From Octopus vulgaris (taxonomy: Eukaryota): DNA of 64,000 nt. The notes below the pieces were generated by a model. The model saw only the letters and a program-made list of their open reading frames with translations. It made no database searches and had not been told where the DNA came from. Shown piece by piece: positions 3,609 through 49,794 of this stretch (the first letter of the stretch is position 1; each line of letters opens with the position of its first letter). Where the stretch lies: the NCBI GenBank assembly GCA_951406725.2, contig OX597840.1, forward strand, positions 17,174,001 to 17,238,000. The letters run 5' to 3'. The translations under genes were made by a program, and so were the position numbers.

Positions 3609-3612
3609 TTAA

Positions 3613-5898: not shown

Positions 5899-5934
<36 letters not shown>

Positions 5935-19458: not shown

Positions 19459-19515
<57 letters not shown>

Positions 19516-21130: not shown

Positions 21131-21131
21131 A

Positions 21132-23943: not shown

Positions 23944-23991
<48 letters not shown>

Positions 23992-23995
<4 letters not shown>

Positions 23996-24350: not shown

Positions 24351-25328
24351 AATATATATAAGTAGTAGGTTGTGATTTAGGAGCAGTTTGATATATTACT
24401 TGAAGGTTAAGCAACCATTTAGCACAGTGGACCCTTGTAGCCATTCTATGTTCAAAACATCCGAGTATATTTTTTATCATTGAATATTAAGAAATATGTC
24501 AAAACAAAAAAATATTAAAACATTTGGTGTGCTGTAGAAAGGATTAGCAATTTATCCTTTATTACTCATAAATTTTAAAAGATCTTATACAGACCTTCGA
24601 GGCCCATGTGGTCCCCAGTTGAGACCCACTGATTTAGCAGCTTCCCGCATAATATTGAGGATTGGAGGGGGGGGCATAATTGCTACAACAACGAATAGAG
24701 CTTTGCCACATTCATTCCAGGGTTCCATACACTGAGTTAGAATCCCTACCCAACCAAGTCAAATTTATCTCCTCTTTAAGGGTCGCTAAATCTGTTTATA
24801 GTTGATTACCCCCGTCTCACTCAGGATTGTACTTCTAAGTCAAAAGTCCAGTCTTATCTCTCTCTCACACAGTGTCATGGTGGTTCAGCGATAAAAATTA
24901 CATTTAAAAGTACAAGTGTCTGTGGAGTACTCAGCCACTGGCACAAGTCGGAATTCTTTTGTTCAAATGAGCAGAATGCTTATTGCTTATCGTCAAGACT
25001 GACCGAGAATTTGTTACTTGAATTGCATACTCATGTGTCCCGTTGGGGTAAAAGAAAATAAAAAAGAAAAAAATTATCATAGATAAAGAAAAAAAAATAC
25101 TGCTTGGTAACAGATTAGCGATAGAGAGTGAGGATGAGACTGAACAAACACAAGTCATGGCATGATTCACCTCACCTGCAACCCCCCCTCCCCAGTTGAA
25201 GAAAGACAGATTGATTCCTTAAGACACGAGAGAGAGAGAAAGTTTCCGTTTGAAGGTTGAGAAATACAAACAAACTATTCACCTTTCTGGTTGTAAATTT
25301 TTTAAAACTAATTGAGAGCGGAGAACGA

Positions 25329-25391
<63 letters not shown>

Positions 25392-26874
25392 GTATGTATA
25401 TATATATATATATATTATATAAAGACACACAGTGTTTGTGTTGGAATGATTGAGTGGGGTTGTGCGTCTGTATGCAAGAGGGGTGCATTCGGTACATTCT
25501 TCGACACAACACCCTGGCACAAGATGAAACACTAGTTTCTTTCACAAACCAAAAAGGGGGAGGAAAAAGCCCTTTATCTTTTGAGTTTAATTCTTAAAAG
25601 CTATTAAAGTGAAAGCCCCTTTATTTATAAAGGAGGTAGTTATAGGAATAAAAGATCCTATATATCTGTTGGGAGGTAAGGGGCTTATCCAAACATCAGA
25701 CCCTCTACAAGTACAAACCACTCTAGATTTAAAATTTAAGAGATGGAATTTCAATAAATAGGTTTGTTAAACCATAGGTGAGTCTTGATCTGATACACTC
25801 AGGATTAAAGGCATTCCAGCCTTAGCTACCTAGTTTCATCCACCACTTCCTTTTCAAGCAATCTTTTATTTAAATCAAAAACTGAGGAATATTGTCCTAT
25901 TATTTCTAGCAGAAATATGATTACAGAGATCACTGCTGGAATTAATTTTCACCTCCACCTGATATTTTGTTTTTAACATGGCACATCCATATTGGATGTA
26001 AATCTCGGAACAAATACTACAGTAACTTGGCTCATCAACAGTGTATACATTTAATATGATACATAGATAGCCATTTTGATTTAATACTGCTTATAACGGG
26101 TGTTATACTACATATAATGGGGGGGGGGGTGTATGCTGGCATAGCTGTGTGGTATGAAGCTTGCTTCCCAACCACATGCTTCCGGGTTCAGTCTCACTGC
26201 ATGGAACCTTGGGCAAGTATTTTCTACTAGTCTTGGGCCGACCAAAATCTTGTGAGTGGATTTGGTAGAAAGAAACTGAGAGAAGATAATGTGTTGTGTG
26301 TGTCATGTGCCGCGTGTGTATTTGTATCTGCCCCCCTCCATTACCACCTGACAACCAGTGTTGATACGTTTATGTCCCCATAACTCAGTGATTCAACAAA
26401 AGAACAAGTCCTGAGGTCAATTTCTTTGACTTAAAAAAAAAAAACCTTTAAGGTGGTGCTCCAGCATGGCTGCAGTAACCACCAAGCTTTAAACGTGGAT
26501 GTATATCAGCCCGATTTCAACAGCATGTGAGGGAAGTGGTTTTGCTATTTGAAAGAGTTAAGATATTTTTAAAAGTTCATTGTCCATTTTGATTTACAAC
26601 ACTTGGTTTTATATACACACACAGAGACCATTAAATATTCAATACACTGAAGTAGTGTGAGAGAGCAGCATAGATAACATTGTTGCAAACAAGCAAGCAA
26701 ACAAACTGGATAAAAACAGAGGCACTTAAGTTTTAGGTGGTTGGATAATGCAAGGAGATGTATTTCCATAAGCAATAATTTTTTAATAACTTGGAGGGAA
26801 AGGAGAAATAAATACAAATATTCTCATTATTAACCCTTTAGCATTCAGATTATATATATTGCTTATTTATTCAG

Positions 26875-27297
26875 ATGTAGGAGTGGCTGTGTGGTAAGTA
26901 GCTTGCTTACGAACCACATGGTTCCGGGTTCAGTCCCACTGCGTGGCACCTTGGGCAAGTGTCTTTTACTATAGCTTTGGGCCAACCAAAGCCTTGTGAG
27001 TCGATTTGGTAGACGGAAACTGAAAGAAGCCTGTCGTATATATGCATGTATATATATATATATATGTGTGTGTATGTGTGTGTATATGTTTGTGTGTCTG
27101 TATTTGTCCCTCCCCAACATCGCTTGACAACTGATGCTGGTGTTGTGTTTATGTCCCCGTAACTTAGCGGTTCAGCAAAAGAGATTGATAGAATAAGTAC
27201 TAGGCTTACAAAGAGTAAGTCCTAGAGTCGATTTGCTCGATTAAAGGTGGTGCTCCAGCATGGCCACAGTCACATGACTGAAACAAGTAAAAGAGTA
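26875..27297 (+). mobile_element. SINE family A nested in a piggyBac-like MITE (diverged copy also at 26131-26477)
   Basis: Full copy; MITE sequence resumes after 27297. Confidence 0.85.
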
Positions 27298-30200
27298 TCT
27301 TGTAGCTTCAAGATTTCAATGGTGCATTTGTATATTTTTAGAACGACATTGTGAAAGAGATTGGATATGGTCACGTTGAACATATAACAGGTAGAATAGA
27401 CATCTGTGACTTTTGGCAGGAATTTTACAGCTGGATGCCCTTCCAGTCACCAACTTTCCCCTGTTTCTAAACTAGCTAATAATTTCCCCTGGCCAAACAT
27501 GTTTTTCACTGAAAGATACAAACAACCAACCTTATGGCTATAATAGAAAAGAAATGCTCCAGAGTGGGAGTGAACATGAAACCACATGGTTGGTAAATGG
27601 GCTTCTGAAGTACATAGCCATACCTCCACTCAGTAATAAAAGTTTCTACTTTCTAATCTTCACCTGTAATTTCTCTTCCACTTTTATAACCAAATAGATG
27701 ATGCACTTTATGTAATGCTATGCCAGCCCTGACTTAGCTGTCTGTCAAAGCCATTCCTGTCTGTTCCCTAAATACTGTGAACTTGTCTATACAATATCCA
27801 GAGTTGTTCTTTTCTCACATAGGGCATGATGTGGGAGAGCAGCAGCATTTTAATGTCCCTTTTTGCATGCTTGCACAAGTTAGATGGAGGCCATTGAAGC
27901 AGATTTTCCGCAGCTGGAAGCCCTTCCTGTTGCCAACCACCTGTTTCTAAGTAATGTCCCACACCCCATAGAATGTTTTCACAGATTGGAAGTGGACGCT
28001 CCTATGGTGGTGACACTTGCTTACGACTATTGCTTCATCTTAAGACAAAGCACACAACAGCTTCTTTCTGTTCCCGTGTATCAATTCTACTTACAGGGTT
28101 TATAAAAGCAGGACTTAAGCCAAAACCATGTGGGTTGGAATGCAAACTTCTTAACCATACATCCATGAATGTTTTGCTATTTTTAGAAGGTCAAGTGATA
28201 ACATAGCTCTCCCAGTACTTTTCATATGTACTAGGTCAAGTGGCACATCTGCAAACTCAAATTACATCCCATTTAACTAAACTTGGCTGAAGCCGAGTCA
28301 AATACCTTTCCCTGAACATGAAACTTCAGTTGACAAACTTTTAAGATTGTCGATTGCTTAACAGTACATACAAGCACACACAAAATACCTCATACTTAAA
28401 TTTAATTAACACATTAAATTAGGATCTCGTTAGATATTAAAATACAAACCGGCAGACATTAAACATCCGATTTAATGTGTTTCTGACAGTAATACACCAG
28501 CAGAGCTGAAACTATACTAGAATCTTCATCAGAGGCCAAGCACAGACTAACAAAGTTAAAAGTCAGAAATATATGAATACTAACAACAAAATGTACAGAA
28601 ACATCAATGACCGTCTAGATTGGAAACGGATTAACAGCAAAAAAGAAAAAAGGACTACAAAACCTGGCAGTAAAACAATTTAAGATTGATTTATCATATT
28701 TTAATACTGTCTACTTATATGTATAACTAAGCTCCGATTTTAGTCAGCTAATTACTTTTAATTAGGAAGATACTTAATATATCAATGCTAAACTAGATAT
28801 TTTTCTTCCTTTTTTTGCCTTGTTCAGGCTCTTTCTAAATCTTTTGTGCATGAAACATTTAAACTGTGTGACAATGTCTAGATATAAAAGAGCAAACATG
28901 CTATCTTAAAGGTAACAGTTTTGACACTGACACTAAGTATGTGGGTGATTATCTGAGACGTGTTTTTGCATGTATACTTCTTTTCTCTCCTCAGACTAAA
29001 AGAAAAAAAAAAAAGCATTTGCTTACCAAGAAATGTTTGAGATTTCTAACGATATGGTTAATTCCTATTTCATTAGTTCTAAGAGGTTGTACTTTATCAA
29101 CAAGTATCCAAAATTAATACATTATGTGAATACACCCAAATGTGTACATAAGCAAGTATGCTATCATGCAAATGCTTATGCACATGTATTATATAACTGA
29201 AAGTGGTGCACATCCCTAGAAAGTGAGCACAGGAAGGAATTTTAATTATACAACCCATCTCTCCTACCTCCTCCCCCTACGATCCACTATCTTGTATCTC
29301 CTCTTAAGCTCACCTTTTTGTACTTTGAAGGAGATTGCTCTGGCACCCCATCACTACCCATCTGCCTTCTTTCCAGCTACTCTCACACACCCTCATACTG
29401 CAGAGTTACCATGGCTCACCTGTAAAGCAAGGCATCTATGTTTGTCCTGAAATCATACCTTAGTTTCACAACATCCGACATGAAAACCGACCGCACATGT
29501 GGGGCTTTTTGGTTTTTCCCAGTTCTTCCTAGTTACTTGGCAACTTAATTAGCGCTGGTGCCAAGAAAAAAACCACCAAGTATACACTGTCGAGTGGTTG
29601 GCATTAGGAAGGATATCCAGCCACAGAAACCATGTCAAAGCAGACGCTGACGCTCTCAGCAACCCTGCAGTTTGCCAGATCCTATCAAACCATCAAACCA
29701 ATACCTCTACACACGCACAGACAGAGAAAGAGAATTAACAGATGAGATTGGGAGACTCATCTGCAGGACTTGTAACACCATATCTTCTCCCATCTAATTT
29801 TTTGGGTCTATATAATCTGAGTAAGTTTAGTCTTAATATACATAATTCGTTGCTGTTATGTTAAACTGTTGTATGTCCAAATGCGTTCTTTTTTCAATAT
29901 TTATTTTTGCTTGCAATAACCGGTTCTTTTGGTCAAACTATCGTATGTCCAACTGCTTCTGATGCCAAGATATCAAAAATTGTCAAAGTGTAGTACAATG
30001 GTTTTGCTATGGACTGGTGAAACTACTTTTTCGTTTTCTGGAAAAAGCAACGATTTATATTTAGTTGTATATTAATCATCTGAAAATTTTCAGTCTTTGC
30101 CTTTTTGTTTTTCTTTTTTATTTACACGTATGAATGAATGAATGTGTGTGTGATTCTTTAAAATGTTTCAGCTGTAAAGCTGCAGTCATGCTGGGTAACC

Positions 30201-30751
30201 ATGTATTCATTCTGTTCACTCACAGAGTGGTTGGCATTAGAAAGGGCATCCAGCTGTAGAAACACCGCCAGATCAGATTGGGGCCTGGTAAAGCCTCCTG
30301 GCTTCCCAGACCCCAGTCAAACCGTCCAACCCATGCCAGCATGGAAAACAGATGTTAAGCTATGATGACGACATAACCAAGGAGTTTTAACACAGTTTGC
30401 ATTGTATTTCTCTCTCATCGAGGTCAACTTTGCCTTTCATCCTTTCGGGGCTGATAAATTAAGTACCAGTTGCATACTGGAGTCGATCGAATCAACTGCC
30501 CCACCCCAAAAATTTCAGGCCTAGTGCCTATAGTAGAAAAGATTATACACACACACACAAATCCTACCTGAGGTGGCTTCTCGGATTCTCTGGCAAATAC
30601 TGCCCCACCCTATACAGGATGCCAGTTCATTACAGGAAGACTCATTTTGGGCAGCTGAGTGGACTTAATGTGAAATGAAGCTCAAGAAGAAAATACATTG
30701 CCTGGTTTAGGGGTTGAAACTACCTAACTACTAAGCCATGCACCTCCACTA

Positions 30752-30786
<35 letters not shown>

Positions 30787-31971
30787 AATAAATATATATA
30801 TATAAGTACATAATTTAGAGCCTCCATTGCCAATTATGCTCAGATGACTATTTGAACAAAATTCTCTTACAGTGTTGCAAATCCAAACCACTGTAATAAT
30901 GGCATGAAACCCAATCAAACTAACGAGCCTTACTTTCAAATGGGCAAACAACTACATTTGTTTAGGTTTTCTTTTTCTCTTTTGTCATCTGCACCCATCA
31001 AGGAACGTATTTTCTTGATCATTACAGATAGATGTCTCCCACAATACAATGTAAAGAAACCCCAACATGGACACAAACATGCCGGAAATAGCAGTCAAAC
31101 GTTTCTTTTGTTTTTTTTTTTGTTCTTTTGAGATATAAGCATGATAGCGTGGTTAAGCAGTTCACTTCTCATCTATGTGACTGGTTTCAGTCTCAATGTG
31201 TGACAACTTGGGTAGGGGACTTCAATTAGTGCCAACCATAGCCTTGTGGGTGGATTTGGTAGATGCAAATTGAATGAAGCTCATCTTTTGTGCGTGTGCG
31301 CATCTCTGAAAATTACTGAGCTACAGGAAGTGGACACATTTCTCTTGTCACCAGGCTGTGTACTGACTGTGCCTTTGAAAATGTGTGGAGAAAGATATCA
31401 GTTACTGAAATACAGATATGGGTTAGCAGGAAAGGGAAGGGCATCCTGCATTGATAAAATGCCCCAATAATATAGTGTCACCAATGTAAACAAGGAAAAC
31501 AAAACCATGTAAAAACAAACTGGATAGATTTGAAAGAAAAGGACACTAATGTGCTCCTGGTCAGGAGAAAATCCGGTTGGTCACAGCTGGACTGTCTGAT
31601 TAGAATCCAAAGCAAAACAAGAGATTAAAAAAAACCACTAACATTTTTGTCATGACTTGTCACTAAGGAGGAGATATTCACCTCGAGATTTCAGATATAA
31701 CAGGGTCAGCAGTTTAATGACAACAGGGTTCGAAGATTTTATTTACATTAAAAAGTCAGATAAATTACATGTGTTTTATTGTAAAATTGAGGTCTTTCAT
31801 TGGCTAATACTGAAATTTATCGTTGAGGAATTGAAAACTAAAATGCCATTTCTCATGGGCAACTGTCCACAATAACCAAGAGGAAGTGATAAGTCCACCA
31901 AATGAACAGGTGTCCAGCTGGTTCAAAACCACATTGGATGGGCCTTTGTGTATTTCAACGATTATATAATA

Positions 31972-32187
31972 TCCTTTTCTACTCTAGGCACAAGGCCCCA
32001 AATTTTAGGGGAGGTAGCCAGTCGATTAGATCGACCACAGTACGCAACTGATACTTAATTTATTGACCCCGAAAAGATGAAAGGCAACATCAACCTCAGC
32101 GGAATTTGTACTCAGAATGTAAATTGAGGCAAAATACCGCTGAGCATTTTGCCCGGTGTGCTTACGATTGTGCCAGCTTGCCGCCTT
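31972..32187 (-). mobile_element. SINE family B (MetaSINE-like)
   Basis: Full reverse-complement copy. Confidence 0.75.
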
Positions 32188-33276
32188 AGATAATGTCTAA
32201 ATATTGCTTCAGTCAATTATGTGTTCATCCGTCAGTGACAAGGACTATCTGGTCATCATGAAGTTGGGGCTGAGCATCAAGGGTGCACTGGTGACTGATC
32301 AGGCCAAGCCACACCCAGAAGGCAGTGCAGACAGATAATGGTGATGGTAGTAGTGGGCGACTTAATGGAACTAGTTTCCCTGGCCTGCCTTCATTGGTCT
32401 GCTGCAGCAATTCCGTTGGCTTTGCAATCAGCCTTTACAAACAGCTGATTGCCACTTGCCTCTGTCCTCAGTAGTGAAGCAGGGGTGGGGGTGGACAAAC
32501 ACATACACAAAGACAAATACACATATACATAAATATGATGGGCTTCTTTCAGTTTCCATCTACCAAATCCACTCACAAGGATTTAGTTGGCACAGGGCTA
32601 TAATAGATGCTAGCCCAAGTTGTCAGAGTGGGACTGAACTCAAAACCATGTGGTTGGAAAGCAAGATTCTTACAACTAAGTCATACATATCATATATATG
32701 TAATATATACATATTTTAAAGCAGTGCTCCAGCATGGCTGCAGTCAAATAACTGAAACAAGTGTGTGTGTGTGTGTGTACTAATTAAATACTGACTTATT
32801 ATATGTGCGATTCTTCAATATATGGAAAAACTGTCTTGCATGGAACCAGTCCATAGTGCAAAAAGGGCCAGGGGCCACTACCTTAAATCAATGATCAGTT
32901 TGACCAGGCTAACCTGGGGTTAAACAACAATGTGGATAATCCGAAATGGTCATTCAGGAGTAAAGGAGCCACTGGAATTATTTAGATTTATCTGTTTCCC
33001 TGACAAACACCATGGAAGCGTTATTAAAGGCCTTCAAAGAAACACTCCCTCCACTTCCATTTGAGTACAACACAATCCAATACCATGTGACCCTATTTTT
33101 TTGGTTTAATTCTCAGGTATTATAATGCTACCCTTTACTTTTTATCTTGATGTTTGTCTCCTAGCCTTGACTGCATGATAGCTGTAAAAGAGTGTCAGTG
33201 TCCTGCAAGCAGTGTCCATTTCCAATCTTCTGTGAAAATATGTCTGGTTATGAGGAAATATTGCCATGCCATATAG

Positions 33277-33630
33277 CTGCAGGAATGGCTTTGTGGTAAG
33301 AAGCTTGCTTCCCAACCACACAGTTCCGGGTTCAGTCCCACTGTGTGGCACTTTAGGAAAGTGACATACTAGTTTTGGGCCAATCAAACCCTTGTGAGTG
33401 GATTTCATAGATGGAAACTGAAAGAAGCCTGTCGTATGTGTGTGAGCCTCCCCCAACACTGCTTAACAGGTGTTGGTGTGTTTATGTCCCTGTAACTTAG
33501 CAGCTCAGCAAAAGAGAAAAGAACAAGTACCAAGCTTAAAAAAAAAGTACTGGAAGCAATTCATTCATTCAGCTAAAAATCCGAGATGGTTCCCCAGCAT
33601 GGCTGCAGTCTAATGACAAGTAAAAGATAC
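33277..33630 (+). mobile_element. SINE family A nested in a (GAT)n-tail repeat
   Basis: A/B-box head and tail present. Confidence 0.75.
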
Positions 33631-33778
33631 AAGATACCTGGAAACAGGTGAAGGTTAGCAACTGGAAAGGCATCCAGCTGTAGTAAGTTTGCCTCAACAA
33701 ATTTTGTCCAAACTATACAAGTATGGAAAAGCAGGTGTTAATTACTCATGTATCCTCACAATCATTTAAGATGCTTAA

Positions 33779-33991
33779 CCCTTTAGCATTCAGATTACTG
33801 TCAAATGTAATCCTTCTTAATTCACATCGTTTTGAATTAATCAAGCATTATCTTGTCACCTCGAGATTTTGATGATGTGATTATTTTTAGAATGACATTA
33901 TAGGTAGATCGGAAAGGCCAGATCTGGCAAGTTTGAACATAGAACAGGTAAAATTATTTGGTTGGATATGACTGGTTTAAATGCCAAAGGG
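33779..33991 (-). mobile_element. piggyBac-like MITE, family 1, reverse orientation
   Basis: TTAA|CCCTTTAGCATTCAG ... AATGCCAAAGGG. Confidence 0.75.
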
Positions 33992-34239
33992 TTTAAGACT
34001 TACTGAGCTCTATTCCTGATCAAGAAGAATTAGTACAACGGTTTGAAACTGATCCCTGCCCGCTTCACAAAAGCAAACGATAGATCACAAATATCCAGTT
34101 AATTATGAAGAAATAACTTATTAAAATTTGGTTTACACTGATTGCAATTTAAAGAAAGCCAACCTAATTCTCTCATGAGAAATGCTTTGAAAAGCTGAAG
34201 TGAATCCCAGAGTATGAACCAAAAAGGGAGCCACTATAT

Positions 34240-34485
34240 CAGTAGTTCTCAACCGGGGTCCACATGACCTTTGAAGGGCCATACAAAATTTTGTTAAAAT
34301 CTGCAACAAATTAGTTATACTTCTACAATACACAAAATATTGATTTTTTTTAAAAATACAATTCCTAATATTTAATTCTAAAAATATAAGAGGGGTTTTT
34401 TTAAAACTTCAAATGGCTACAAGGGAGCACCCGAGCAAAATAGGAACTGAAGGGCTCACAGGTACAATAATGGTTGAGAACCGCT
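34240..34485. mobile_element. hAT-Charlie-like MITE (related copy at ~48056-48654, split by a SINE)
   Basis: TIR CAGTAGTTCTCAACC / GGTTGAGAACCGCTG; no clear TSD. Confidence 0.6.
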
Positions 34486-35529
34486 GATGCAGAAGGTCCA
34501 CTCAGTCTGCTAAAATAGCAGCTAAATCTCATAACACTTATACCTTCAGTAAGCCTGCTCTGCTGGATTAGTGTAAGCCAGGGATTGAACAACAAAAACT
34601 AGAAAAACTGGGTAAATTACCATTCAAAAAGGCTGACATCCAAATCTCAGAACCCCATCTTTTTATGAATGCCCTCCAGATAAAACATTAAGTCTACAAA
34701 GTTCAAGTCAACCATCAGTATATTACAGACAGAGTCCATGGATTAAAATGTTTTTTAAAATTATTTCCTATGTCCCCCAAATTCCCTCCCCACTAAAGTA
34801 GCTGGTTATTAACTGAGCGAATAACACTCTCCTTCAGTATTCTGCAGCAGCAATCAACCACAGAAATGAAGTCATTCCCTCAAGGCTGCACACAACATAC
34901 CTCAGTGGTGGCCTCCACACATTCTTCACATAACAAACATACTTTCGAAAAGGTTGGGTCTCGTTTCTCCCAGGTGGGAAATCTAACTTTAAAAGAGCCA
35001 ACTCTACAAAGAAGCACATATTCCTCATGCCACCTGCATATTTGAACTGGTATGTTTATTCCACCCACACACTTCAGTTTGAAAGTAATAAAAAGTAAAA
35101 ATGTAAAAACAAAAAAGGTGTAAAGCTGATAAGATTAGTTTCGTCTTTTGTTCCCCCCCACCCCAACCTCATTAATAAGCTATAAAAAAAAATTCCTTTA
35201 ATGAAAGAGTTGCAAACCTCTCAAATTACACCCTACAACCAAGATACACGTAAGCCTAGATGTGATTGAATGATACAGCCTTGTGGTTTCAGGTTCAATT
35301 TCATTGCATGGTACCTTGGTCTACTATTCGTTTCCGTTTAGCCAGAATCTTGAGAACAAATTTGGTAGACAGAAGTCACGTGTAAGCCCCAGAGTGTGCA
35401 TAGGTATAAATATAGTTTTAACCCCTTAGCTTTTAAACTAGCCAAATCCGGTTCGAACATTCAACATGTTTTACATTCAAAACAGGCCACACCTACCCTC
35501 TCACACTGAGCTAACACTAACAATCACAT

Positions 35530-36013
35530 TGTAGTCGTGGCCAATGCCAGTGTCACATAACTGGCTCGTTAAAACCACCCTTCAATCGTTAGGCGATACG
35601 CTGTGCTTGAGAAGACCTGTTGAGCCAAGTGAAATCATAGTCCCGACCAACGCCAGTGGCTTCTGATTGGCACCCATGCCAGTGGTATGTAAAAAGCATT
35701 GTTCAAGCATTTGGCCTCACAGAGGCAGTGACAGGTGACCAAGACCTTTGACGACACACCATGCTTGTGTAGACCGGTCAAGCTAAGTGAGATCATAGTC
35801 ATGGTTGAAGCTAGTGTCAGGTCAATGGCACTTGTGCTGGTGGTATGTAAAAACACCCACTACACACTCAGAGTGGTTGGCATTGGGAAGGGCATCCAGC
35901 TGTAGAAACTCTGCCAAATCAGACTGGAGTTTAGTACATCTCCCCAGCTTACCAGTTTCCAGTCAAATCAGCCAACCCATGCCAGCATAGGAAGTGGATA
36001 TTAAATGATGATA
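35530..36013 (+). mobile_element. Repeat family C with (GAT)n tail (other copies ~470-675, 680-860, 6660-6860, 13690-13900, 17340-17545, 27845-28050, 30215-30372, 52540-52745, 56335-56530)
   Basis: Shared GTGGTTGGCATTAGGAAGGGCATCCAGC...CCAACCCATGCCAGCATGGAA...GTTAAATGATGAT. Confidence 0.7.
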
Positions 36014-39000
36014 TCACCGAAACCTCAAAGCTATAAGAAAATGCCTCATTAATTCTAAACAATTTGAATAAAGAAAGCATTACATTTGACAGAGTGATCT
36101 GAACACTAAAGGCTTAGGGTAAATCCTGTGGGATATTCTGGGATGCTACATCAGTGATGTTTCTGGAGCCCCAGGAGGTTTTGGGTCTTTCGACATTAGA
36201 CCCCCACCCTCACCCATTTGACCCAGTCAAGGTGTGTGAGTGTGCCCCTAGATTTGTCTTTCTCCATTTGCTGATTGTTTGCTTACCTTAGCACCTCTGC
36301 AAAAGGAGGCCAGAATAAAGGGTACTAGACTTCAAAAAGAAGTGGGGGAAGGCCTCTGGATCATTGCATCAACTAAACCAGGGTTTCTCAAAAGGTGGAC
36401 GGTGGCAGGTAACTTCAGAAAGTCATGTAAGAAAATGAGCAAATAAAATTTTAAAACCTCTTGAATATAACACAGACCTTTTTATTTATATATATGTATA
36501 TATAAAAGGTCTCCAACCAGGCCTTTTGTGGTACCCTAAAAGCCAGGAACTTTTCAGCACCCCCTTGTGTGTGTGTGTGTGTATGGGTGCTGCAAGCACA
36601 GCTTGTGTGGTTAAGCTTACTTCCCATCCAAATGGTTTGGGGTTCAGGCCCACTGCATGGCACCTCGAGCCAATGTCCACTATAACCACAGGCCAAACCA
36701 AAGCCTTGCTAGTGGATTTGGTCATTAGAAAGTAAAAGAAACCCATCATGTAATTACACGCGCGCGCGCATGTATGCATGTATGTATGTATGAGTATGTG
36801 TTTCTCTTTTGACAGCATAACAGTCGTAAACAAGTGTCACCGTCACACAAGCAGTGTCCATCGCTTCCAATCTTCCATGAAGACATTATCTTGGTTGGAA
36901 ACCGGTGAGATTTAGTGACAAGAAAAGCATCCAAGTGCCAGAATGCCTGTCGCAAGCACAAAGTTGGCAGTGATAAAGATTTAACTATTTAGGGGGAGGT
37001 CAAGGTGACCAACAAAATTTTTGAGGGCAGTGCCCCCGCACAGCTGCAGTTCAATGTCTGGAGTCATTAAAACTATAAAGCACATCCATGTGTGATGGCT
37101 TTCATTGACGTAGATTAACAAAGGATGTAAATAAAAGAAAAGCTGAAAGCACCGTGCGTCTGCACAAAACCATGGAATAGATGAAGCCTAAGCTGCAGCT
37201 GATCACTTCTCAACACTTTGCAGAGAGAGATGCAGCAGACCATGACCAAGTGATCAGGCCATTGGAAAGGTATAAACAACAACAACAACTATTAAAAAAT
37301 GCAGGTTTATATAACATCAAAAATACATGATTGACAGGTCAGACATGCAACTGAACAAGCCTATATGTGGTTGCTTAATATGCTAGAAATAACAGCCCAA
37401 CAGCCCTGATATCTACAACCTACTATTGTCACCCTTTAGTATTTAAACCAGCCATATCCAGCCTATCACACCAACCCATCAATGCCATTTAAAATATACA
37501 AAATTCTTTCCAAAAATACTTTCAGCAACAGTTCAAGATTAGTCTTGCTTTGCCATGAGCAAAACTATGGAAGCCCATGAGAATCATACTTGTAACTTGA
37601 GGATCCCGCTTCCGAACGACAATTCTACAAATAGTAGAATTGACAATTTTATGAATAGTTGACAATTCTACAAATAGTTAAAAATGCAGTGGAATATTCA
37701 GCCACTTCACCCAATGTCAAGTAGAACTGTCAGTTGTTGAAACCAAAAGGAAATTAATATTTGATTGCATTGGTCCAACCATTGTTTCCTCCTCAACAGA
37801 AGAGCTCTAAAAGCCAACCCACACAAGTGTCAGGCACTACAATGCTAGAAAATTGCATTCTGGGAAGAGTAAAGAAAATATTTCAAGTGAAGAAACTAGA
37901 AACTGAGTCTGGGGTGATTTGAGAGTTGTGCTCTTCCATCACTCAGTGAGAGGCAGCTGTTTCAGGATAGAATTTAAAGGACGTAATAGCAGCAAGTAAG
38001 CTTTCACAAAGGAGCCACTTCAGGTGGCAAATGGCACACCATTTCCACAAACCTTCAACCAATAAGACCAACAGAATTAAGTTATCAAAATTCAAAGGGA
38101 AACAAAACCCCTAAGTACTGGAGTCCATCTGTTCAAACTAAAACCCTTCAAAGTATCATGCTCCAGCGACCCCAGGAGTGCCACAATCCAATGCTAAACA
38201 AGTGAAAGAAGGGACCAAGACTAAGACAAGCTGGCTGCTATTTCTAGCAGATCAAGTGACTGTAAAGTCACACCCTACTGTAAAAAAAAAAAAGTCATAA
38301 ATGTGCTGTCTAAAATAGTATAAAAATATACTGGATGGTCACAAATTATCTATCAGATCAAAACTGACCCAAGGCTAAACAGTTTAATGACCATTTCCCA
38401 TGGAAGAGGGGAAAAACTGATCCTCAAAACATGGAAGGGGAAATTTTAATTGGAAAACCAGATACTAAACAAAAACTATGTAGCAAATATATTAGACATT
38501 TGTCCAGTTGAATTAGAATCCATTTCACTAATTAAAAAAAAAAAAGCAAATCTAACATTTTACACAATGCCAATTAAAATCGTCTGTCCCTTTTCATTAG
38601 TATCGCATTTCATCTCACCCCACCCCGAAAGAACTACACATTACTAGTATCAATATCACTGCCTTTATCTAAGTTGCAGGGTCACCTCTAAGCTGCATTG
38701 CTACAAAAAGGTAAAGCAAAAATCCCAATGATTTTTTTAGTCGGTGGTAAGAATTGGTGAGAACATAAGACAGCTTTTTGATCTTCATTTCCTATTCTTG
38801 TCTCAGCAAATTGTTGACAGTGTCAAGCTTTAGTTAGCTTCTCAGTTACACCTCAGTTATGAATGACCAGGTCACACATTTAGCATCCGTCAATTAGTCA
38901 TTAAAGCAAGATTTTATTTCAGTTACACAATATCTATTACCGGATGGCCGCTATTTCACAACCTGAATGTCGTGGATGAAAAAAGATCTAAATCAGAGTT

Positions 39001-39486
39001 GAACAAGGACAAGAGAGAAAATAACTAAATGTAGTCGGGTTACACATTATGACAGGATGACCATGGTTTGTATCTCTGATCAGACATAGGTCCAATGAAT
39101 TAGAGTAGATCCTGAATGTCCTTGATCAAAGATCAAAACCAGAGCTGAACGAGGAAACCACAACCATCTGTAGTCTGATTACTCCATATTACAGTTTGAT
39201 TGATCAAATGTACTCTGCCAGGTCTGATCAGGGACAACAACATCCACAGTAGGGCAGATTAAACAGCATCAGTCGAAAGTTATGGGGACTACCTTAACAA
39301 GAGGGGTTAAAATAGCAAATACAAAAGGGTTTCAGAGGTGGTGTGTAACAAAAACCAACTTTTGAGAGATTTTCTCTGTTTACTGTCTCGAGTCCCTAAG
39401 ACCCCAGAGTGGTGCCGACATGACCAAGATGGCATTTCTCCTAGATGGGATGCCAGTCTGTGTAGAGGGGAACGTGTTTTACTTAA

Positions 39487-39703
39487 CCCTTTAGCATTTA
39501 AACGGCCATACCTGGCCCAGATATACCTCATTTTAAGTTCAAACTGACCAGATCCAACCTCTCACACACATCCTACAATGTCATCCTAAAAATAGACAAT
39601 AACCTCATCAAAATCTCAAAGCTATGAGATAATATATGATTAATTCAAAGCCATATGAATGAATAAGATCTACATTTGGCAGAGTAATTTAAACCCAAAA
39701 GGG
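39487..39703 (+). mobile_element. piggyBac-like MITE, family 1 (full length; other copies ~6334, 17060-17239, 19790-19993, 26834-27400, 35421-36119, ~37430, 41976-42199)
   Basis: TTAA TSD on both sides, CCCTTT...AAAGGG termini, internal sequence shared among copies. Confidence 0.8.
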
Positions 39704-40427
39704 TTAAGAACAAAGCACATCACCTGGTTCAGACTTGAAACCACAATCTGGCAATCGCGAGTCTAACACCCTAACCACTAGGCTATGCATTTATGCAATA
39801 ACTTTACAGAACCACTATTGAATAGAAACCAGACTTTCCCCAGGGACTGAGCAGTTGGTACTTGAGTGCTTTACCTGTTTTTTTTTTTTTTATCACCCTT
39901 GACATAAACCATGAAAACAAGTCGAGCAAGGTTGGAAATAAAATATATAAAAAAAAGGAGAAAAGCCTCACAAAACCATATTTAAGCTAAAAACTTCTCA
40001 CTGGGAAGTAAAATACCAACTCCACAAAAAGAAGTAAAACTTATAACTATGATATACATAGAAGTGAATAATTCATTAAAAAAAAATTTAGGTCGTGGCT
40101 AATAGTGTTTCACCATTAGAAAACTATAAAAGAATGTGTGACTGGTTTAACAAGTTTTATCTCATCACACAAAACACAAAAATGCTAGGCTAAATAACTA
40201 CACACACACACACACAGAGACAGACACGCCCACACTGTAACAAATGACTGTGCATACTTGAGTGGAAAGAGTGATTTTTGTACTGGATTCGCTCTCTCTC
40301 CTCACAAACAATCCTTCTGAATCAGAAATGCTTGAGAAAAAAAAGAAAAAAATTTTTTTTATCAAAGTCAGAAAATGAACTTTTTAGGTCTATCAAAATT
40401 ACAAAGAACCGATTAGAAGTCATCAGA

Positions 40428-40600
40428 GGAGAGAGAGGGAGAGAGAGGGAGAGAGAGAGAGAGAGAGGGAGAGAGAGAGAGAGGAATGGACTTTTACCGA
40501 ACTCTGCTGATATTGAGGGCTTGGTGTTAAAATGTTAGATTAAAAACCACAAATTAACCATGTCAAAAAAACGTTTCACACCACAAACACCACAAACACC

Positions 40601-40631
<31 letters not shown>

Positions 40632-40915
40632 ATTGCTGTGGTAGCAGCATCAGCAGCATTGGTAGGTTAACGAACATCGTCCTCACCTTGAAGACTGCCC
40701 ACTTCTATGTCCCAGTGGACCTAGTTTGATCATTACAGATGAGGAGGGAAGGGCAGTGGACCGCTCATAATTGACAAGGGTTTCATTGAAAGGTGGGGTT
40801 AGGCAACGGTGGCCTAGCCAGAGTTCAAGTTCTGTTAACATATAGGTGAGTGGGTTGTCTTGATAAGGTTCAACCAAGTTTAACATATTCAAATTTAGTT
40901 TCACTCAATACATGA

Positions 40916-40958
<43 letters not shown>
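40428..40958. repeat. Microsatellite cluster: (GA)n 40428-40482, (GTA)n 40602-40631, (TG)n 40919-40958
   Basis: Directly visible. Confidence 0.9.
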
Positions 40959-40959
<1 letters not shown>

Positions 40960-40975
40960 GTATTCAAGATATAAG

Positions 40976-41680
40976 TATAGCGTGGCTATGGTCAAGAAGC
41001 TTGCTTTGCAATCATGTGGTTTTGGGTTCAGTCCCATAGGGTACCATCTTTGACGGGATGACCAAAGCCATCGAGTGAATTCAGTAGATGGAAACTGTGT
41101 AGAAGCCCATTGTGTGTATGTGTGAGTTTGTCCCCAACCTCACCATTTGACAACCAGTGTTTTGCTTACATCCCCATAACTTAGCAGTTCAGCCAAAGAC
41201 ACTGACAGAATAAGTACGAGACTTAAGAAATAAGTCCTGGGGTTGACTTGTTTGGATATAGACCCTTTAAGGTGGTGCCCTAGCATGGCCACATTCCAAT
41301 AACAAACCAGTAAAAAGGTAAAAAAAGAAAAAATGTTTGCCCTAAAGTTTATTTTCAAGGCATGGCTATGTGTTAAGAAGCTTGCTTCCAAAGCACATGG
41401 TTATGGGTTCAGTCCCACTGCATGGCACCTTGGGCAGGTGTCTTCTACTATAGCCTTGGGCTAACCAAAGCCTTGTGAGTGGATTTGGTAAATGGAAACT
41501 GAAAGTGTGTGTGTGTGTATTCATGTTTGTCCCCCACCACTGCTTGACAACTGGTGTTGATGTCTTTGCATCCCTGTAACTTAGCGGTTCATCAAAAAGA
41601 GACCAATAGAAAATGTACAAGGCTAAAAAGTAGTGGTCCTGCAGCATGGCCACACTAACGCCTGAAACAAGTAACCGATA
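40976..41680 (+). mobile_element. Two tandem diverged SINE family A copies
   Basis: Heads at ~40980 and ~41358. Confidence 0.75.
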
Positions 41681-44600
41681 AAAGCATAACACACGCGAGT
41701 TACTCAGTAGAAGTCGTTTTATATGTAACTTCCAATAAAGAAAACCAGATGCTTGACTAATGGACAAACCTAAGAATTCTTGTCTCATAGAAGTTTTGTA
41801 CACAAGTAAATATAACACACTCCATCGCCATATTCCAATCACCTCGCAATCTCTTGTACATTCAAAACGGTTGACTGGTCAGACAACCTGACAAGTTGTA
41901 TGCTAACTATATCCTTGGTAGAATGTGAATCAATTATGAAACATCAAAAGCAGTTAAGTGAAACCATTCTCTTAATCTTTTAGCCTTTAAACCAGCCGCA
42001 CCCAGCCAAAATATTCTGTTTTATGTTCAAACCAATCAAGATCTGACCTCTCACACCTACCCTACAATGTCATTTAAAAAAAAAAAAAAACAATCATATC
42101 ATCAAAATCTCAAAGCTATGAGACAATGCGCAATTAATTCTAAACAATGTGAATAAATAAGGACCACATTTGATAGAATAATCTGAATGCCCTAAAGGGT
42201 TAAACAAGACCCTCACAGCACCAAATCCCCCAAGTGCGACTCATAGCTACACTTACAATTCAATCTTAAAAATTATCTGACTACTTCAAATTCACAAGGC
42301 CACTACCCCTGAGAACATCCCTTCCATAACCCTCAGTAATGCAACCCAGAGCTAAGCCCTCTTTACAGAGATAGATCCCAATTTTGAGGAATACAGTATT
42401 GTATACCATCCCTTGCTTTTGTCCCGGCCAATTAATCTCCTCTTATACTCACTTCCAACACATAAAAAGTTGACAACCATCAAAAACCTTATTTACCTTG
42501 AAACTCCTTCCCTTCCGACCACCAAAAAAACTTCCAGGAGACCAGATCTATTAGGGCCCTACTTTCCTCTGTAACCAGGGTGCCCTTGCCTCCACAGAAA
42601 TTTAAAATAGTGTTGTTGGCTTCACCTTCAATGTTTTCTCTTTTTCAACAAGGTCTGGTGGACAAAGCTGTCCACACATATACTCATCTGTCCTTCAGGT
42701 CTTGACCAGACAGACTGACCACAGTAATGCAACCAGTGCTGATGGAACTAACACTCCATTCTGGTGTGGCCATGGGTTCAAGTTTTGTCCAACTTCACAT
42801 AATGACCTACTTATTGTCCACTCGCAACACCTACTCTGATAATACCCCTCCTTCATGCAACAGGCATGTCAAATTGTCACTGACTCCATGAATACATACT
42901 GCCCCAGGCCAGAAACATCCTCCAGTGGGTCATAGTGATGCCATCTCCTACAAATGATTACCGCATCATATCACAAAGATAATGCACCTTGTCCCTCCTT
43001 TAAATCTAAAGCACACACCAAGAACCCACACAGCTGGTCCAAATGCTAAACCTCACTCACTACCACTTATGACTTCTGCTGGGGAATGCATATCCTGAAC
43101 ACAGTAAAGACTCCATCTCAAAGACTGGCCTTCAAGTCCAGAAAACACTTCCTTTGTAACAGGTACATCATGAGATCTTGTCCTCGTTGCAATGTGATGG
43201 CTCAAGGGCTTCACCTCCAAGATTCAAACATCTCCTGTAAACCATATAGCTGTTCTCTGTGTGTGTGTGTGAGTGTGTGCGTAAAACAAGATAGCTTTCA
43301 GAGGTACACCTACAACCTGATGGTACTACCTGTACCATCGGGTTGTAGTTGTACTAAATTCAAGTGTTAAAAATAATTAATCAGAAAAAAAAAGATGGAC
43401 AATACCATGTACTAGAATTAAGTATTCAAGACCATTCCTTTACAACAGTTACTGCAAGACTTTCAGAAGGGTATGCCTAACAAAAAATTATTGTGGTTGC
43501 CCATACCTGCTTTGGCAGGTAAATACACCATTTATAAAATAAGTGTTCTTGTTAACAATTGGGTGAAGTAAGAACAAGATGGAAACCTGGAAAAGGAGGG
43601 GGAGGTTCTCTCAGAAATGAAAACATCTGCAGTAAATTTAAACTAGGTTCAACTGGTGGAGGCCCACTTCAGCCCACTCACCAGTAGTTACATAAATCAC
43701 TGAATCACTGCAATTAATTTCAAAGAGTTAATTAGAACTTGCAGTGGAAATTATTAAAAGTAGATTACTTGAGGACAAAGAAATATACAAGTGCGTATAG
43801 TGTGAGTGAGTGTATAGTGTGCATGTAATGTGTGTGCGTATGAATGTATATATGTGTGTGTGTGTGTGTCTTATGTACATGGAGGACTACTTGAGAAGTA
43901 GATGACAGCTTTTATTAAGGTTTCTGAGAACACTTCATAGAGCAATTATTTTAAGACTTTTTTTTTTGTTGGCCTCTAATGGAGGAAGGGAGAGAGAGAG
44001 AGAGAGAGAGAGATGTGTGTAAAGAGTGGTAGCTACAAAGGGAGGAAGAGAAAGGGAAGCAGTCTTAATAATTACTCAATTTTCTTATTTCTTTTATGCA
44101 TCAACAAAACTTTTGTATCAGGGTTAAAAGAAAAGCTGGAATTAAAAATATTACTTGACATTGGCAGCACAATACCATAAAAGTTTGTGGAGGGAAGGGT
44201 CTAAATCGTCTAAAATCTTATCCCTAGCACTCTGTTGTATAGGCCCTCCTACCAGTGAGATTTGAACCTAGTACAAATGGACCAGAACAAAATAGTATAA
44301 AACATTTAACTCAATGCTCTACCCTTTCTGTTACTCCACCAAACCTCTGTAGAGATTAACAACAGAGAGAAAGAGGATTTAATAATTTCAAATTTTGGAA
44401 CAACAATTTAAAGGGAGATGGTTGGTGGATAACACTGACGCGCCCCTCCCTCAGTATTCAACTGGTACTTATTTTATCAAACCCCAAAAAATAAAAGTGA
44501 AGTTGAATTCAGCAGAATTTGAACTCAGGTGGGAAAAGTTCCACTGCATTTTGTCCAACGTCAAACAATTCTGCCAGTTGGTCATCTTAAAAGAAAATGG

Positions 44601-45422
44601 TCTTCATTAGTCATACAGTTATTTATGGACAAAGGAAGATCATTGCATTCTTCAAAGAATTGGTCTCAATTTGGAAAGTGGAAAAATATTGCTATAAGTC
44701 TAAGCATGTCAGCATGCTGTCAAAGCTATTTCAACTACTGCTGCTTTACAAAAATAAAAGATGAAAGAATATTGATCATAAAAATAAGAGAAACAACAAA
44801 TAAACAAAAACAGCAACTTAAAACCATAAACTGAAGAAGCAAACATCCACTTAAAACAGATTTGCCAGTAAAACATAATGGTAAAACAAAAAATTAACTG
44901 TTACTAGAAAATCAGGGTAAAACAAAGGCCGGTGAATAAATGTTATAGAATTTGACAATCCAAAGACGGGGGTAGGGGTATCCAAAAAAAAAAAAAAATT
45001 CTGTAGAAAATATTAAAAAAATAAACGAAACGGACAAACAAAATGTAGAAATAATTATGTGAGACATAATCCAACAGAAATGATTCTATATTTATAAAAG
45101 TATGTTTAAAGATAGCTTCACTGAATAATTTCAAGGTTGTCAACCTATAATTGATGGTGATGGTGGTAGGGAGAGGAGTGCATGTTGATAAACCGAAAAA
45201 TAGCGACCTCAGACATGGATTTCTTCTACTTGCACAATTGGGACAACGCAATTCTTGCAAATAAGGACAAGTCACAGAGGACATCTAAATACTTTTTAAA
45301 TAATCTGATTAACATGGAGTATTTAACCAACAGACTTCAAAGCCCGACTACAGAGGCTTTCTAATTGGAGTCGTACGCTACAGCGGGCCACCTTCACAAC
45401 TGTTTGTCATTCCTCAAGGTAC

Positions 45423-45473
45423 CCCTTTAACGGCATCGCCTTGACTGTCAACTCCCTGAGGTTCTCTAGCCAT
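45423..45473 (-). CDS. Candidate alternative first coding exon (MAREPQGVDSQGDAVKG)
   Basis: aaacATGG start context, 17 open codons, phase-0 donor GGG|gtacct (weak), downstream of a promoter-like CpG-rich patch. Confidence 0.25.
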
Positions 45474-46063
45474 GTTTCTTTTCTCGAGAGAAACTGGGAA
45501 CAGCCCTTTCCTTTCAAATACAACCAGGTTCAATGATGCAAGCATCAGGTCGCCGACATCGATATCGCGATCACCTGTCTACCATCAGTCACTCCTGACA
45601 CCACACACTTCTCTCTACCTGCCATCAAGTTATTAAACTTTAAACCAGCCACAAGCAAACTGCAGTCAGTAAGACTTTCTGAATGGCACACCGAGAGAAA
45701 AATAACCAGCTTTTTTTCTTTTTTTCTTTTTGTCTTTCTTTTTTCATATATAGATATATATATATATATATAGATTTTAAGTAGTGCGGTCCGCCCATGG
45801 CGATGAGCCATGTCTCATGTCCGCGTCACGTAAAAGGTTGCCCTGGCCTGTTTTTAAACAAACTTCAGCCGTTTAGAATTTAATAATCATACTTTTATAT
45901 AGAAAATGTATATATATGGTGATATAAATATACTTTTATAAATATAGAAAAGACGAGGAAGAAAATACAGAACGAAAAAATAAAACACTAACATGAACAA
46001 ACTAAAAATGGTGAAGATGTGAATGGATGGAAGAAAACCTAGCAGATGGTAAAAGTTACTCAC

Positions 46064-46084
46064 CTCCCCATGCCGGAATCGGAA
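46064..46084 (-). CDS. Candidate 21-nt frame-preserving microexon (FRFRHGE in phase 0)
   Basis: Minus strand: pyrimidine tract, then gttaaaaatTGCtaatttttctctcag|TTCCGATTCCGGCATGGGGAG|gtgagt. Both splice sites are strong, the length is a multiple of 3, and there is no stop in phase 0. Confidence 0.55.
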
Positions 46085-46486
46085 CTGAGAGAAAAATTAG
46101 CAATTTTTAACGGGGAAAAGAGAAAAAAAGGACAGCGAAGACATTGGAACAGTTCATAAAAAAAAAAAAGAAAACTGACCCCTTAAAATAGAAACGGTCA
46201 AAAGTTGGAGGAAAATTGACTTTTCTAATCAAATTTTATTCCTTAAAGAGTAAAAAAAGGGATAAAATGAATGATTGAATGAATGAGGTTTGAACAGAGA
46301 CTAAAAAATAAACAACAGATCAAAAACGGAAAACGAAATAAAACCATCTGTTTTTACACACTGATGCGATAAAAAAAGTTCAAGCATTGATTTAAAAAAT
46401 AAACGAAGCATATTTCTATTTTACATATAATATATAATTTATTTAACAAAACGATACTTTTTTTTTTTTGCTTTACTTGCTCTCTC

Positions 46487-46530
<44 letters not shown>

Positions 46531-48161
46531 TAATGTTAAAAAGTAGAAATATAAAAAATAACGAAAAGAAAAATAGACGAAAATTGAAATGAAAGCCTGA
46601 ATACCACAAATCCGGTTCTGGCTTTCAAAATAAAACAATGTATATGATTCATACAGTGAAGTTTTACGTAGATAAAATATTTCTGCTCAGTAACTCGAGA
46701 GACAGAAAACACATACCTATACTTATACCTATATAATATTATACAAAACACATGCCAGGCATACATTTTTCGTTACACACGCACTAATATATTACATGAA
46801 CTAAAAACGACTTAGAAAATAATTAAGCACATCAAAAACTAAATCAATAAACGACTAATATATAACATTACGTATTTTCCTGACACAACGTTTGTGCGTT
46901 TATGACATCCCCCCCCCAACACACTTCTAATTAAGCCAAGACAAATATGTAAAGGTTAAGGTTGAAACTAATATATTTAATCCTGGATTAATTATGTATG
47001 TCAGTATTATGTAAAACTAATAAAACTAAAAGTTTAATTTACAAAGTAAAAACATCTCACGTCTTAAATACTCGGGCAATTTTATTCAGAAATATATCTG
47101 AGAAAGAAAGAAAGAGAGCAGACTTTGCGGGTGGATGTCCTTTGAAGTTCCAAGCCTCATTGGGGAAAGAAAGAGTACGGAAGTGTAAAGAAAGAGGAGA
47201 AAATGAAATATAAAAAAAAAAAGGGGGAATATGTCTTAAAAATTGTGATTTCCGTTCTATGAAAAACACACAAAATACTTTCCAATGAGATATTAGACCT
47301 CGAAGGGCAGTTATTCCAAAGACTGCGCCAATAAAAGAAACTTCTTGATATCCCAGATATTATTTATACTTTTGTGACGATGGGTGACTTAGAGTTTATG
47401 TTACGGCATTGGGCTCGCCATTGCAAGGTCATGCGTTCGACTTCCCGACCAAGTGCTGTATTCTTGAACAAGACCCTTCATTTCTTTAGCACCCCATGGC
47501 TAACAACAGGAGTTGGGACTTAAAACTTGCGTCAGACTGGCGTGGCGTCCCGTCTAGGGTGGAGGGCATTCGCAAGATACCAATAGCAACGACTCGATGC
47601 TTCTATTTCAATGCAGAAAGCCAAACTTGACGCTCCATAGTGAGAAAATAAAATAAAAGGAGTCTACCTGGTCAATAGACCTGCACAACATAGTAACCAA
47701 ATAGCCCTCTATCAGTCTTTCGATGTAAAAGACATTGTACTATCATACTTATGAACTTAGATTGATCTATCATAAGCACCAGAAGTTAAAGCTAGGGCTT
47801 AACAATTTCTATAGCCTTACATGCTATGGAAGAAAATGGATTTACTTAGATCTCTGCCCAGCCAAGACCAACCAGGGCCTAAACTACTGTAAACAGCCAA
47901 AACATTTCATAAATCTTAAATTTCTTTCTACATTCTACCTTATAAAAATCATTAATATTTACCACCAATTCTCTACAACTGAAAATATAGTTTATTCATA
48001 AAGTTATAATTAAATATCTAAAATCAAAGTTACAAATTATAAAATGCCAGAAACACTGCTTCTCAACTGGGGTCCGCATAAGATTTGCTGTTAAAATTTA
48101 TGTACAAAAAACTAGTTATACCTCTAAAATACAAAATAGATTAATCTTTTTATATAATTAT

Positions 48162-48565
48162 AGGTGCAGGGTTGGCTGTGTGATAAGAAGCTTGTTTCCC
48201 AATCACATGGTCCTGGGTTCAGTCCCACTGCGTGACACCTTGAGCAAGTATCTTCTGTTGTAGAATCAGGCCAACCAAAGCTTTATGTGTGGATTTGATA
48301 GACGGAAACTGAAAGAAGCCTGTCGTGTGTGTGTGTGTGTGGTGTGTGTGTGTATATACGCACATTATATATGAATATATTTGTGTTCCCCCCCCATTGC
48401 TTGACAACCGATGTTGGTGTGCTTACGTCTCCATAAGTTAGTGGTTTAGCAAAAGAAACTGATAGAATAAGTACTAGGTTTACAAAGAATAAGTCCGGGG
48501 TCGATTTCTTTGACTAAAGGCAGTGCCCTAGCATGGCCAGTCAAATGACTGAAACAAGTAAAGGA
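48162..48565 (+). mobile_element. SINE family A
   Basis: Full copy. Confidence 0.85.
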
Positions 48566-49384
48566 ACAAAAAATTCCTAACAATATTTAATTTTGCTCTG
48601 AGGGTCGATTTCAGTAAAATAAGAACCAAAGATTAAGAAAATGGTTGGGAAACTGCTCAAACACTTCAAACGAAATCTCACTCATCCACGCCCATTTCTT
48701 GACAGCTGAACCAACGAGGAAGTATATCTAGGTCAATCGACCTGCCAGAAATAGTAACCAAATCTACCTCAAATCATGTCACACTTCAAATTTTGTCAAA
48801 GTAATCCCAAGACAAGGCAGTTAATCTTTGGTCAAATATCTGCTTAATTAGGATAAACTACAACTGAACAGCTTAACGCTAGCTGGCATTTTCACTTTCA
48901 AAACATCGACACTCCTTTTACCTTACAGTTTGAAAAACAGATATTGACGAGAAAGACTAATTACAGGTGTGACCTGATCGACACACTGGAAAACTGATCC
49001 TGCATGGCTGCTGTCCAAAGACTGAAACCAGCAAAAGACTAACCGAGCAGTGCTCTACCGCATGGCAATGTCACCAGATGTGAACAATATTTTGGTTTGA
49101 CAGCCCCCTACATCATCAATACCAAGAAATACAGACGTAGCTGACAGTACCCTCTTCTTCCAAGAAAATCCCAGAACAAATTGTAACCAACAGTTAAAAG
49201 CCAATTAAAAAATAGAATACTCTTAAATCATTTATTATACACACTCAAACCCCAACCAAGGACATATATATGTATGTGTGTATATATATATATATATATA
49301 AAGTTAATCCAAACAAGAAAACAAAAAGACAACAACGCAAGGATGTGGAACAAATAAAGTATTATTGGACGCTCAGGGAAGAAG

Positions 49385-49454
<70 letters not shown>

Positions 49455-49681
49455 CATCTATATAAAAATCTGTATAGCATTGTCATAGTTTAATTTAAGA
49501 GATTCTATAAACAGTCCACAACTCAAGTCTCAAATGAAGACCAAAATGGATTTAGCAAGACCAAAGAATTTATGGTAACCAACAAACTAAAGAAATGCTC
49601 ATAACAGGACTGACACAGTCATACATATAATACATATATATAATATATACACATGATCACTTTCAAGAATGTTTGACTTAC

Positions 49682-49693
49682 CGGTTTTGGCAT
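49682..49693 (-). CDS. First coding segment (MPKP) of a probable ERM-family (moesin/radixin/ezrin) gene; rest of the CDS lies beyond window position 1
   Basis: Minus strand reads ccgaccATG CCA AAA CCG|gtaagt: good start context, consensus donor, phase 0. Vertebrate ezrin and radixin begin with a 12-nt MPKP coding segment followed by a phase-0 intron. Only 4 codons are visible, so the family call is an inference. Confidence 0.7.
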
Positions 49694-49794
49694 GGTCGGT
49701 AGCGATGGTAAGGAATAATATTAATATCCAATGTTTATAGATTTATATCCTACTAGTCTATCTAGAAATACAGATTCCAAGTGGAAATCAAGTT
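49682..49794 (-). other. Internal exon carrying 5'UTR plus start codon of the ERM-like gene
   Basis: Acceptor cttttttctttgcag|AACTTG at 49794 (possible alternative tatttctag|A at 49761); donor CCG|gtaagt at 49682; unique non-repeat sequence. Confidence 0.7.

Follow-up and report, generated by a model that had tools for sequence, protein, structure and literature searches.

A candidate neural microexon after codon 4 of the octopus moesin gene

The window, that is the whole stretch of 64,000 nucleotides of Octopus vulgaris DNA that was analysed (G000:C27:17174001-17238000, part of a 2.8-Gb genome), carries on its minus strand the 5′ part of an ERM (moesin) gene. An exon of this gene matches Octopus moesin records at 100%. 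Behind a short MPKP start, the encoded protein shows the domains FERM_N, FERM_M, FERM_C and ERM_C in order and above cut-off (Pfam), while ERM_helical reaches 21.9 bits against a cut-off of 40. Its best relatives of solved structure are moesin (2i1j) and ezrin (4rm8), with merlin scoring lower, and we classify the predicted protein as an ERM, not as merlin. The features within the window are the following.

49682..49794, minus strand: ATG-bearing exon, containing 5′ UTR and the MPKP codons (49693-49682), with a phase-0 donor (MPKP then GT)
1..49681, minus strand: in-window part of the first coding intron (whole intron 51,586 nt), with both cassette exons inside
46112..46131, minus strand: displaced polypyrimidine tract of exon A, at -47..-28, 20/20 pyrimidines, with UCUC
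46087..46174, minus strand: AG-exclusion zone of 88 nt, second longest of 15 acceptors (constitutive range 35-132)
46085..46111, minus strand: 3′ splice site region of exon A, with CAG, a short UC-rich tract, UGC and an A-rich spacer
46064..46084, minus strand: cassette microexon A, 21 nt, phase 0/0, FRFRHGE, stop-free, CAG acceptor
46058..46063, minus strand: 5′ splice site GTGAGT of exon A (GAG then GTGAGT, 7/9 donor consensus positions)
4429..4497, minus strand: cassette exon B, 69 nt, phase 0/0, encoding ILDAIDSFVSQAVPWDVFKGHTK (23 residues), located from protein P0127

The ATG-bearing exon is covered entirely by a contig of run X5 and from 49783 by a contig of run X7, both of which run on into exon 2. 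Exon 2 (constitutive, phase 0, VNVRVQ...) is found at C27:17172095, 1.9 kb past the left edge of the window, and is followed by eleven further coding exons reaching C27:17123130. Further upstream, at C27:17242220 (window position 68220, outside the window), there is a non-coding 5′ exon whose donor reads GTAAGT and which is joined to the ATG exon in a contig of X5. At the other end of the gene the C-terminus is alternative: records end in EFEAF or EFEALN, and genomic read-through would give EFEAL (C27:17123130 and downstream). The LN ending fits an acceptor near C27:17120780, the F ending fits several acceptors. The variable last residues fall in the autoinhibitory, actin-binding tail, which recalls merlin isoforms 1 and 2.

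The initial annotation, made from the letters of the window, had proposed a microexon in the span 46064-46135 and a product MPKP-FRFRHGE-xNVRV. The stop-free 21-nt exon, flanked by acceptor and donor, is indeed present at 46084-46064 on the minus strand, the span being exon A plus its acceptor region. The product was found letter for letter, as MPKP-FRFRHGE-VNVRV, in three protein records: XP_029652744.1, CAI9741825.1 and CAI9741828.1 (P0125, P0126 and P0129), which begin MPKPFRFRHGEVNVRV. All three are predicted models, and the two from O. vulgaris may copy the one from Octopus sinensis. An automatic pipeline would hardly put so short an exon, of 21 nt, inside a 50-kb intron unless transcripts supported it, and we infer that transcript evidence stands behind these models. 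The moesin cluster of O. vulgaris and O. sinensis has nine members, of which three carry exon A, three skip it and three carry exon B.

Skipping is seen in contigs of two of the four runs, X5 (depth 667) and X7 (570), where the ATG exon is joined directly to exon 2; the runs carry no tissue labels and were taken as RNA by guess only. Exon A is therefore optional. Among the joints listed for contigs of the four runs in 45300-50300, none connects the ATG exon to exon A; contigs drop minor forms and the repeat at about 48170-48570 crowds the tables, so that the missing joint is no evidence against inclusion. This repeat is interspersed and very abundant, with a summed contig depth of tens of thousands in all four runs. 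Taken together, we regard exon A as very probably real.

The isoform is already in protein databases, including RefSeq, and so is not new there. The earlier statement that no such ERM insert was known needs qualifying in view of the published 27-nt exon of the fly Moesin gene, which is eMIC-dependent and pan-neuronal. For an octopus ERM microexon, we found no description in the literature, where supplementary exon tables could still list one. The main text of the O. vulgaris long-read annotation (PMC9699675) contains neither ‘microexon’ nor ‘moesin’, and moesin is not mentioned in the parts used here of the preprint that includes tissue-specific exons of O. bimaculoides (bioRxiv 10.64898/2026.09.05.749416). 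The parts of PMC9258296 and PMC6978628 that were consulted contain nothing on the subject either.

The second cassette, exon B, had been missed at first, though it lies in the same intron as exon A. Its acceptor is weak: many consecutive A precede the CAG, the tract is set back (24/30 pyrimidines) and there is no UGC within 60 nt. A displaced tract that comes without UGC would suggest that exons of differently designed regulation share this intron. Exon B is contained in five Octopus records from three species, including O. bimaculoides, and has a 25-residue counterpart in P0136, a transcript-derived (Logan) protein of the cuttlefish cluster; by the sequences collected, it is better conserved than exon A. 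The two exons occur together in none of the 13 Octopus records listed, although 21 plus 69 nt would keep the frame. They may be mutually exclusive, a possibility with few models behind it. The aligner suggested that exon A derives from the end of exon B, but this was, judged by eye, too weak to claim.

Targets of the eMIC domain are described as having long AG-free zones, a UGC near the acceptor, UCUC-rich tracts and CUAAY branch points and, in the fly, short flanking introns and weak donors (PMC8797185, in the sections used here). According to the part of a second study used here (10.1101/2024.09.17.613571), their core signals lie at some distance from the AG and include a UCU/CUC...UGC enhancer, and the UGC occurs in about three quarters of vertebrate targets without being strictly required. 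Exon A has the length (3–27 nt), the preserved frame, the AG-free zone, the UGC and the UCUC tract. The region -53..-24 of its acceptor contains 26/30 pyrimidines, the highest value among the 15 acceptors of the gene (constitutive acceptors, 13–21), and three UCUC words are found upstream of the exon. The UGC that had been reported about 16–18 nt before the exon was located at -18..-16 (46102-46100), where it overlaps a branch-point-like CUAAU. This word, at -16, is the only CUAAY within 100 nt of the acceptor; it is very near the AG and not upstream of the tract. The initial annotation had further described a strong acceptor with an upstream pyrimidine tract. The tract is there, though displaced, but ‘strong’ is not quite accurate, as the part next to the exon is ordinary: the 20 nt adjoining the CAG contain 13 pyrimidines, compared with 12–19 in the 13 constitutive acceptors. 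A 281-nt region around exon A has a single match in the genome (by a search that skips very common words) and is thus single-copy, on which ground a repeat origin of the exon was rejected.

How often such an arrangement arises by chance was estimated from the intron itself and from 60 block-shuffled introns. The intron contains 650 candidates (AG..GT, in-frame, 3–27 nt), and exon A alone passes the combined filters for donor (at least 7/9), pyrimidines and AG-free zone, filters which were chosen after exon A had been seen. At least one look-alike was present in 97% of the 60 shuffles at the loosest threshold, in 15–67% at five looser thresholds (returning exon A only or UGC-filtered) and in 1/60 at the strictest. 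Of 102 decoy acceptors in this intron, 38 have a UGC at -6..-30, as do two of the 13 constitutive acceptors; being common among decoys, it is weak evidence by itself. Given the post hoc filters and the look-alikes in shuffles, exon A is only suggestive as a sequence, and it is the protein records that carry the case. Four weaker in-frame candidates of the intron (44267, 43353, 16031 and 6840) are supported by no record and are as frequent as chance predicts.

A search of the genome with PF15230 (SRRM_C), which we take to be the eMIC domain, matched one exon, G000:C25:37317492-37317626, at 33.8 bits against a cut-off of 27. This is a candidate for the eMIC exon of an octopus Srrm234 gene. The SRRM4/eMIC-type architecture that had been claimed for exon A is therefore borne out as far as the acceptor features fit and an eMIC-domain exon exists in the genome, while the UGC, on which it partly relied, has low specificity. 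By its anatomy exon A would work like a neural microexon, and it is a putative member of that class. Splicing rates in O. vulgaris are highest in neural tissues in the parts of PMC9699675 used here, which serves as a weak prior only.

In our preferred reading, to which we assign a probability of roughly 0.55, exon A is an in-frame moesin cassette that is likely included mainly in neurons by way of the Srrm234 eMIC domain. Outside neurons, the exon would be too short for ordinary exon definition and would be skipped. In neurons, the eMIC domain would help U2AF/SF1 to use the displaced pyrimidine tract together with the UGC-containing spacer.

Alternatively, exon A may be regulated outside the neural eMIC programme, being biased to muscle, gonad or epithelium, or being one of two competing N-terminal cassettes under other factors. 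The frequency of UGC by chance (38/102 decoys) speaks for this, as does exon B, which shares the displaced tract (24/30) but has no UGC within 60 nt. We nevertheless judge it unlikely, as length, frame, AG-free zone and UCUC tract jointly fit the eMIC description and the fly orthologue, Moesin, is an eMIC target.

The distribution of the insert bears on another explanation. Only three of the 393 collected proteins contain it, and it is absent from the records of O. bimaculoides, Argonauta and the cuttlefish cluster. Searches with residues 1–42 of the inclusion isoform and with shorter queries gave no further carriers among the best 120 of 1994 and of 486 matches, where the top fish matches were ranked by unrelated, mostly Met-less N-termini. 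Conservation, which the initial annotation had proposed to check, is thus found as identity between the records of two sister species, O. vulgaris and O. sinensis, but in none of the squid or cuttlefish protein records; as far as these sequences go, it appears confined to that pair. Since a protein cluster shows a single representative, minor isoforms may escape notice. The O. bimaculoides moesin models (P0004, P0121) differ from the other cephalopod records in two internal stretches, which resembles assembly gaps; as these models look gapped, the missing microexon there is weak evidence.

Exon A could accordingly be young and rarely included within the O. vulgaris species group, without selected function, as splicing noise that the N-terminal tail tolerates and that annotation pipelines picked up. 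Only O. vulgaris and O. sinensis records carry it; no collected transcript-assembly (Logan) protein has exon A, whereas exon B has P0136, and pseudo-microexons with moderately good sites turn up in a sizeable share of shuffled introns. The strictest feature set, however, was reached in only 1/60 shuffles, the exon A region is single-copy and not repeat-derived, and clusters and contigs under-report minor isoforms, so that absence elsewhere weighs little. On balance we think this explanation improbable.

That exon A is a UTR/uORF exon, as the initial annotation had cautioned, or else an alternative first exon end or an annotation artefact, is very improbable: it does contain an ATG in another frame, which would meet a stop just past the exon 2 junction, and an unspliced X1 contig (45954-46115) spans both its boundaries, but pre-mRNA or DNA would give just such a contig, the main ATG is in the preceding exon with a spliced 5′ UTR exon further upstream (68220), and the three records with the in-frame junction product, linking exon A to MPKP upstream and to exon 2 downstream, remove this as the main reading.

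In AlphaFold2 models of the exon A form (pTM 0.36), residues 1–8 have pLDDT below 50 and strand 1 starts from V12, the first exon 2 codon. For the exon B form, residues 1–25 have pLDDT below 50, and strand 1 again begins at the first exon 2 codon. Since few alignment rows cover the inserts, the low pLDDT is no proof of disorder. The FERM_N score is identical with and without the exon A insert (68.6 bits, Pfam). In these models the inserts lengthen the N-terminal tail and leave lobe F1 intact. Exon A encodes two Arg, one Glu, one His and two Phe in a strand-like alternation, with a net charge of about +1, and has no Ser, Thr or Tyr. A basic/aromatic patch at the start of F1 had been predicted; Phe and Arg are present, but the net charge is only about +1 and the residues belong to a low-confidence tail outside the FERM fold. 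The lipid site of ERM proteins is the F1/F3 cleft; in merlin, an N-terminal extension phosphorylated at Ser10/Ser13 has a regulatory role (PMC6515277, in the parts used here). With less support than the splicing steps, the seven residues may lengthen the flexible tail with the FERM fold unchanged and add an alternating Phe/Arg motif that would tune partner or membrane contact, as the N-terminal extension does for merlin. For octopus exon B, the helical hydrophobic moment of the first 11 residues is 0.56, compared with only 0.16 for the P0136 window.

No insert is found at the codon-4 junction in 113 of the 136 proteins in which the start and the first strand can be recognised. In many models, from vertebrates and others, an intron-like start runs into the same first strand, which suggests an early origin of the phase-0 intron at codon 4. 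Eight ERMs, from Aplysia, Biomphalaria, Bulinus, Plakobranchus and four more (P0079, P0096, P0099, P0100, P0104, P0393, P0101 and P0392), are longer by a single residue, His or Thr, at this junction, which a 3-nt microexon or a shift of the splice site might explain. The ERM P0175, whose record names the apicomplexan Siedleckia nematoides as its source, contains a 34-residue insert at the same junction; we infer that it probably derives from the animal host. The last nine residues of its insert loosely resemble the end of exon B, and the insert may hint at a more ancient cassette in this position.

A wider picture can be drawn, which we offer tentatively and consider doubtful as a whole. The ancient codon-4 intron would hold a three-way N-terminal switch between no insert, a neuron-specific, eMIC-dependent insert of seven residues and a mutually exclusive, coleoid-conserved insert of 23–25 residues. 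Combined with three C-terminal ends, this switch would yield tissue-specific linkers with an optional, merlin-like extension, and the eMIC domain would have captured the fly and cephalopod ERM genes independently, at different ends of the protein. Exon A in any case gives the neural microexon programme a concrete candidate in cephalopods, in a membrane–actin linker; the fly orthologue of this linker is a proven target of the eMIC domain. Should inclusion turn out to be neural and the fly exon occupy another part of the gene, the same gene would have been recruited twice by the same regulator. The understanding of microexons or of ERM proteins would not change.

One of the closest known counterparts is moesin isoform X3 of O. 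sinensis in RefSeq (XP_029652744.1), with an identical N-terminus including the 7-residue insert; this is an automatic model, and the record attaches no regulation or function to it. Within the merlin-ERM family, merlin resembles the octopus protein in that the sequence preceding the FERM domain varies, and merlin and radixin have alternative C-terminal ends produced by splicing (PMC6515277, parts used here). The merlin extension is constitutive and phosphorylated, whereas octopus exon A is optional and without Ser, Thr or Tyr. The parts of PMC6515277 used here describe no N-terminal cassette in ezrin, radixin or moesin.

With the bilaterian neural microexons that are activated by the eMIC domain (of Srrm3/Srrm4 in vertebrates and of Srrm234 in invertebrates) exon A shares the length of 3–27 nt, the preserved frame, a cytoskeletal host gene, the AG-exclusion zone, the set-back UCUC tract and the UGC near the acceptor. 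It differs from them in having no clear branch point upstream of the tract, and from the fly eMIC exons in its position in a 51.6-kb intron with a good donor, the fly exons having short introns and weak donors. Drosophila Moe contains DmeEX0005186, a 27-nt exon that is eMIC-dependent and pan-neuronal, and in the same intron DmeEX0005185, a 132-nt exon that is eMIC-sensitive; eMIC targets are almost completely rewired between phyla (PMC8797185, including Table S2, in the sections used here). The octopus gene belongs to the same family and likewise combines a microexon and a longer cassette in one intron, of 51.6 kb compared with about 0.7 kb for the fly pair. The fly exons presumably lie in the C-terminal half, between helical domain and tail, and not after codon 4. 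If this is right, the fly and octopus exons are convergent, not orthologous, and the rewiring of eMIC targets between phyla also makes convergence the likelier link between fly and octopus.
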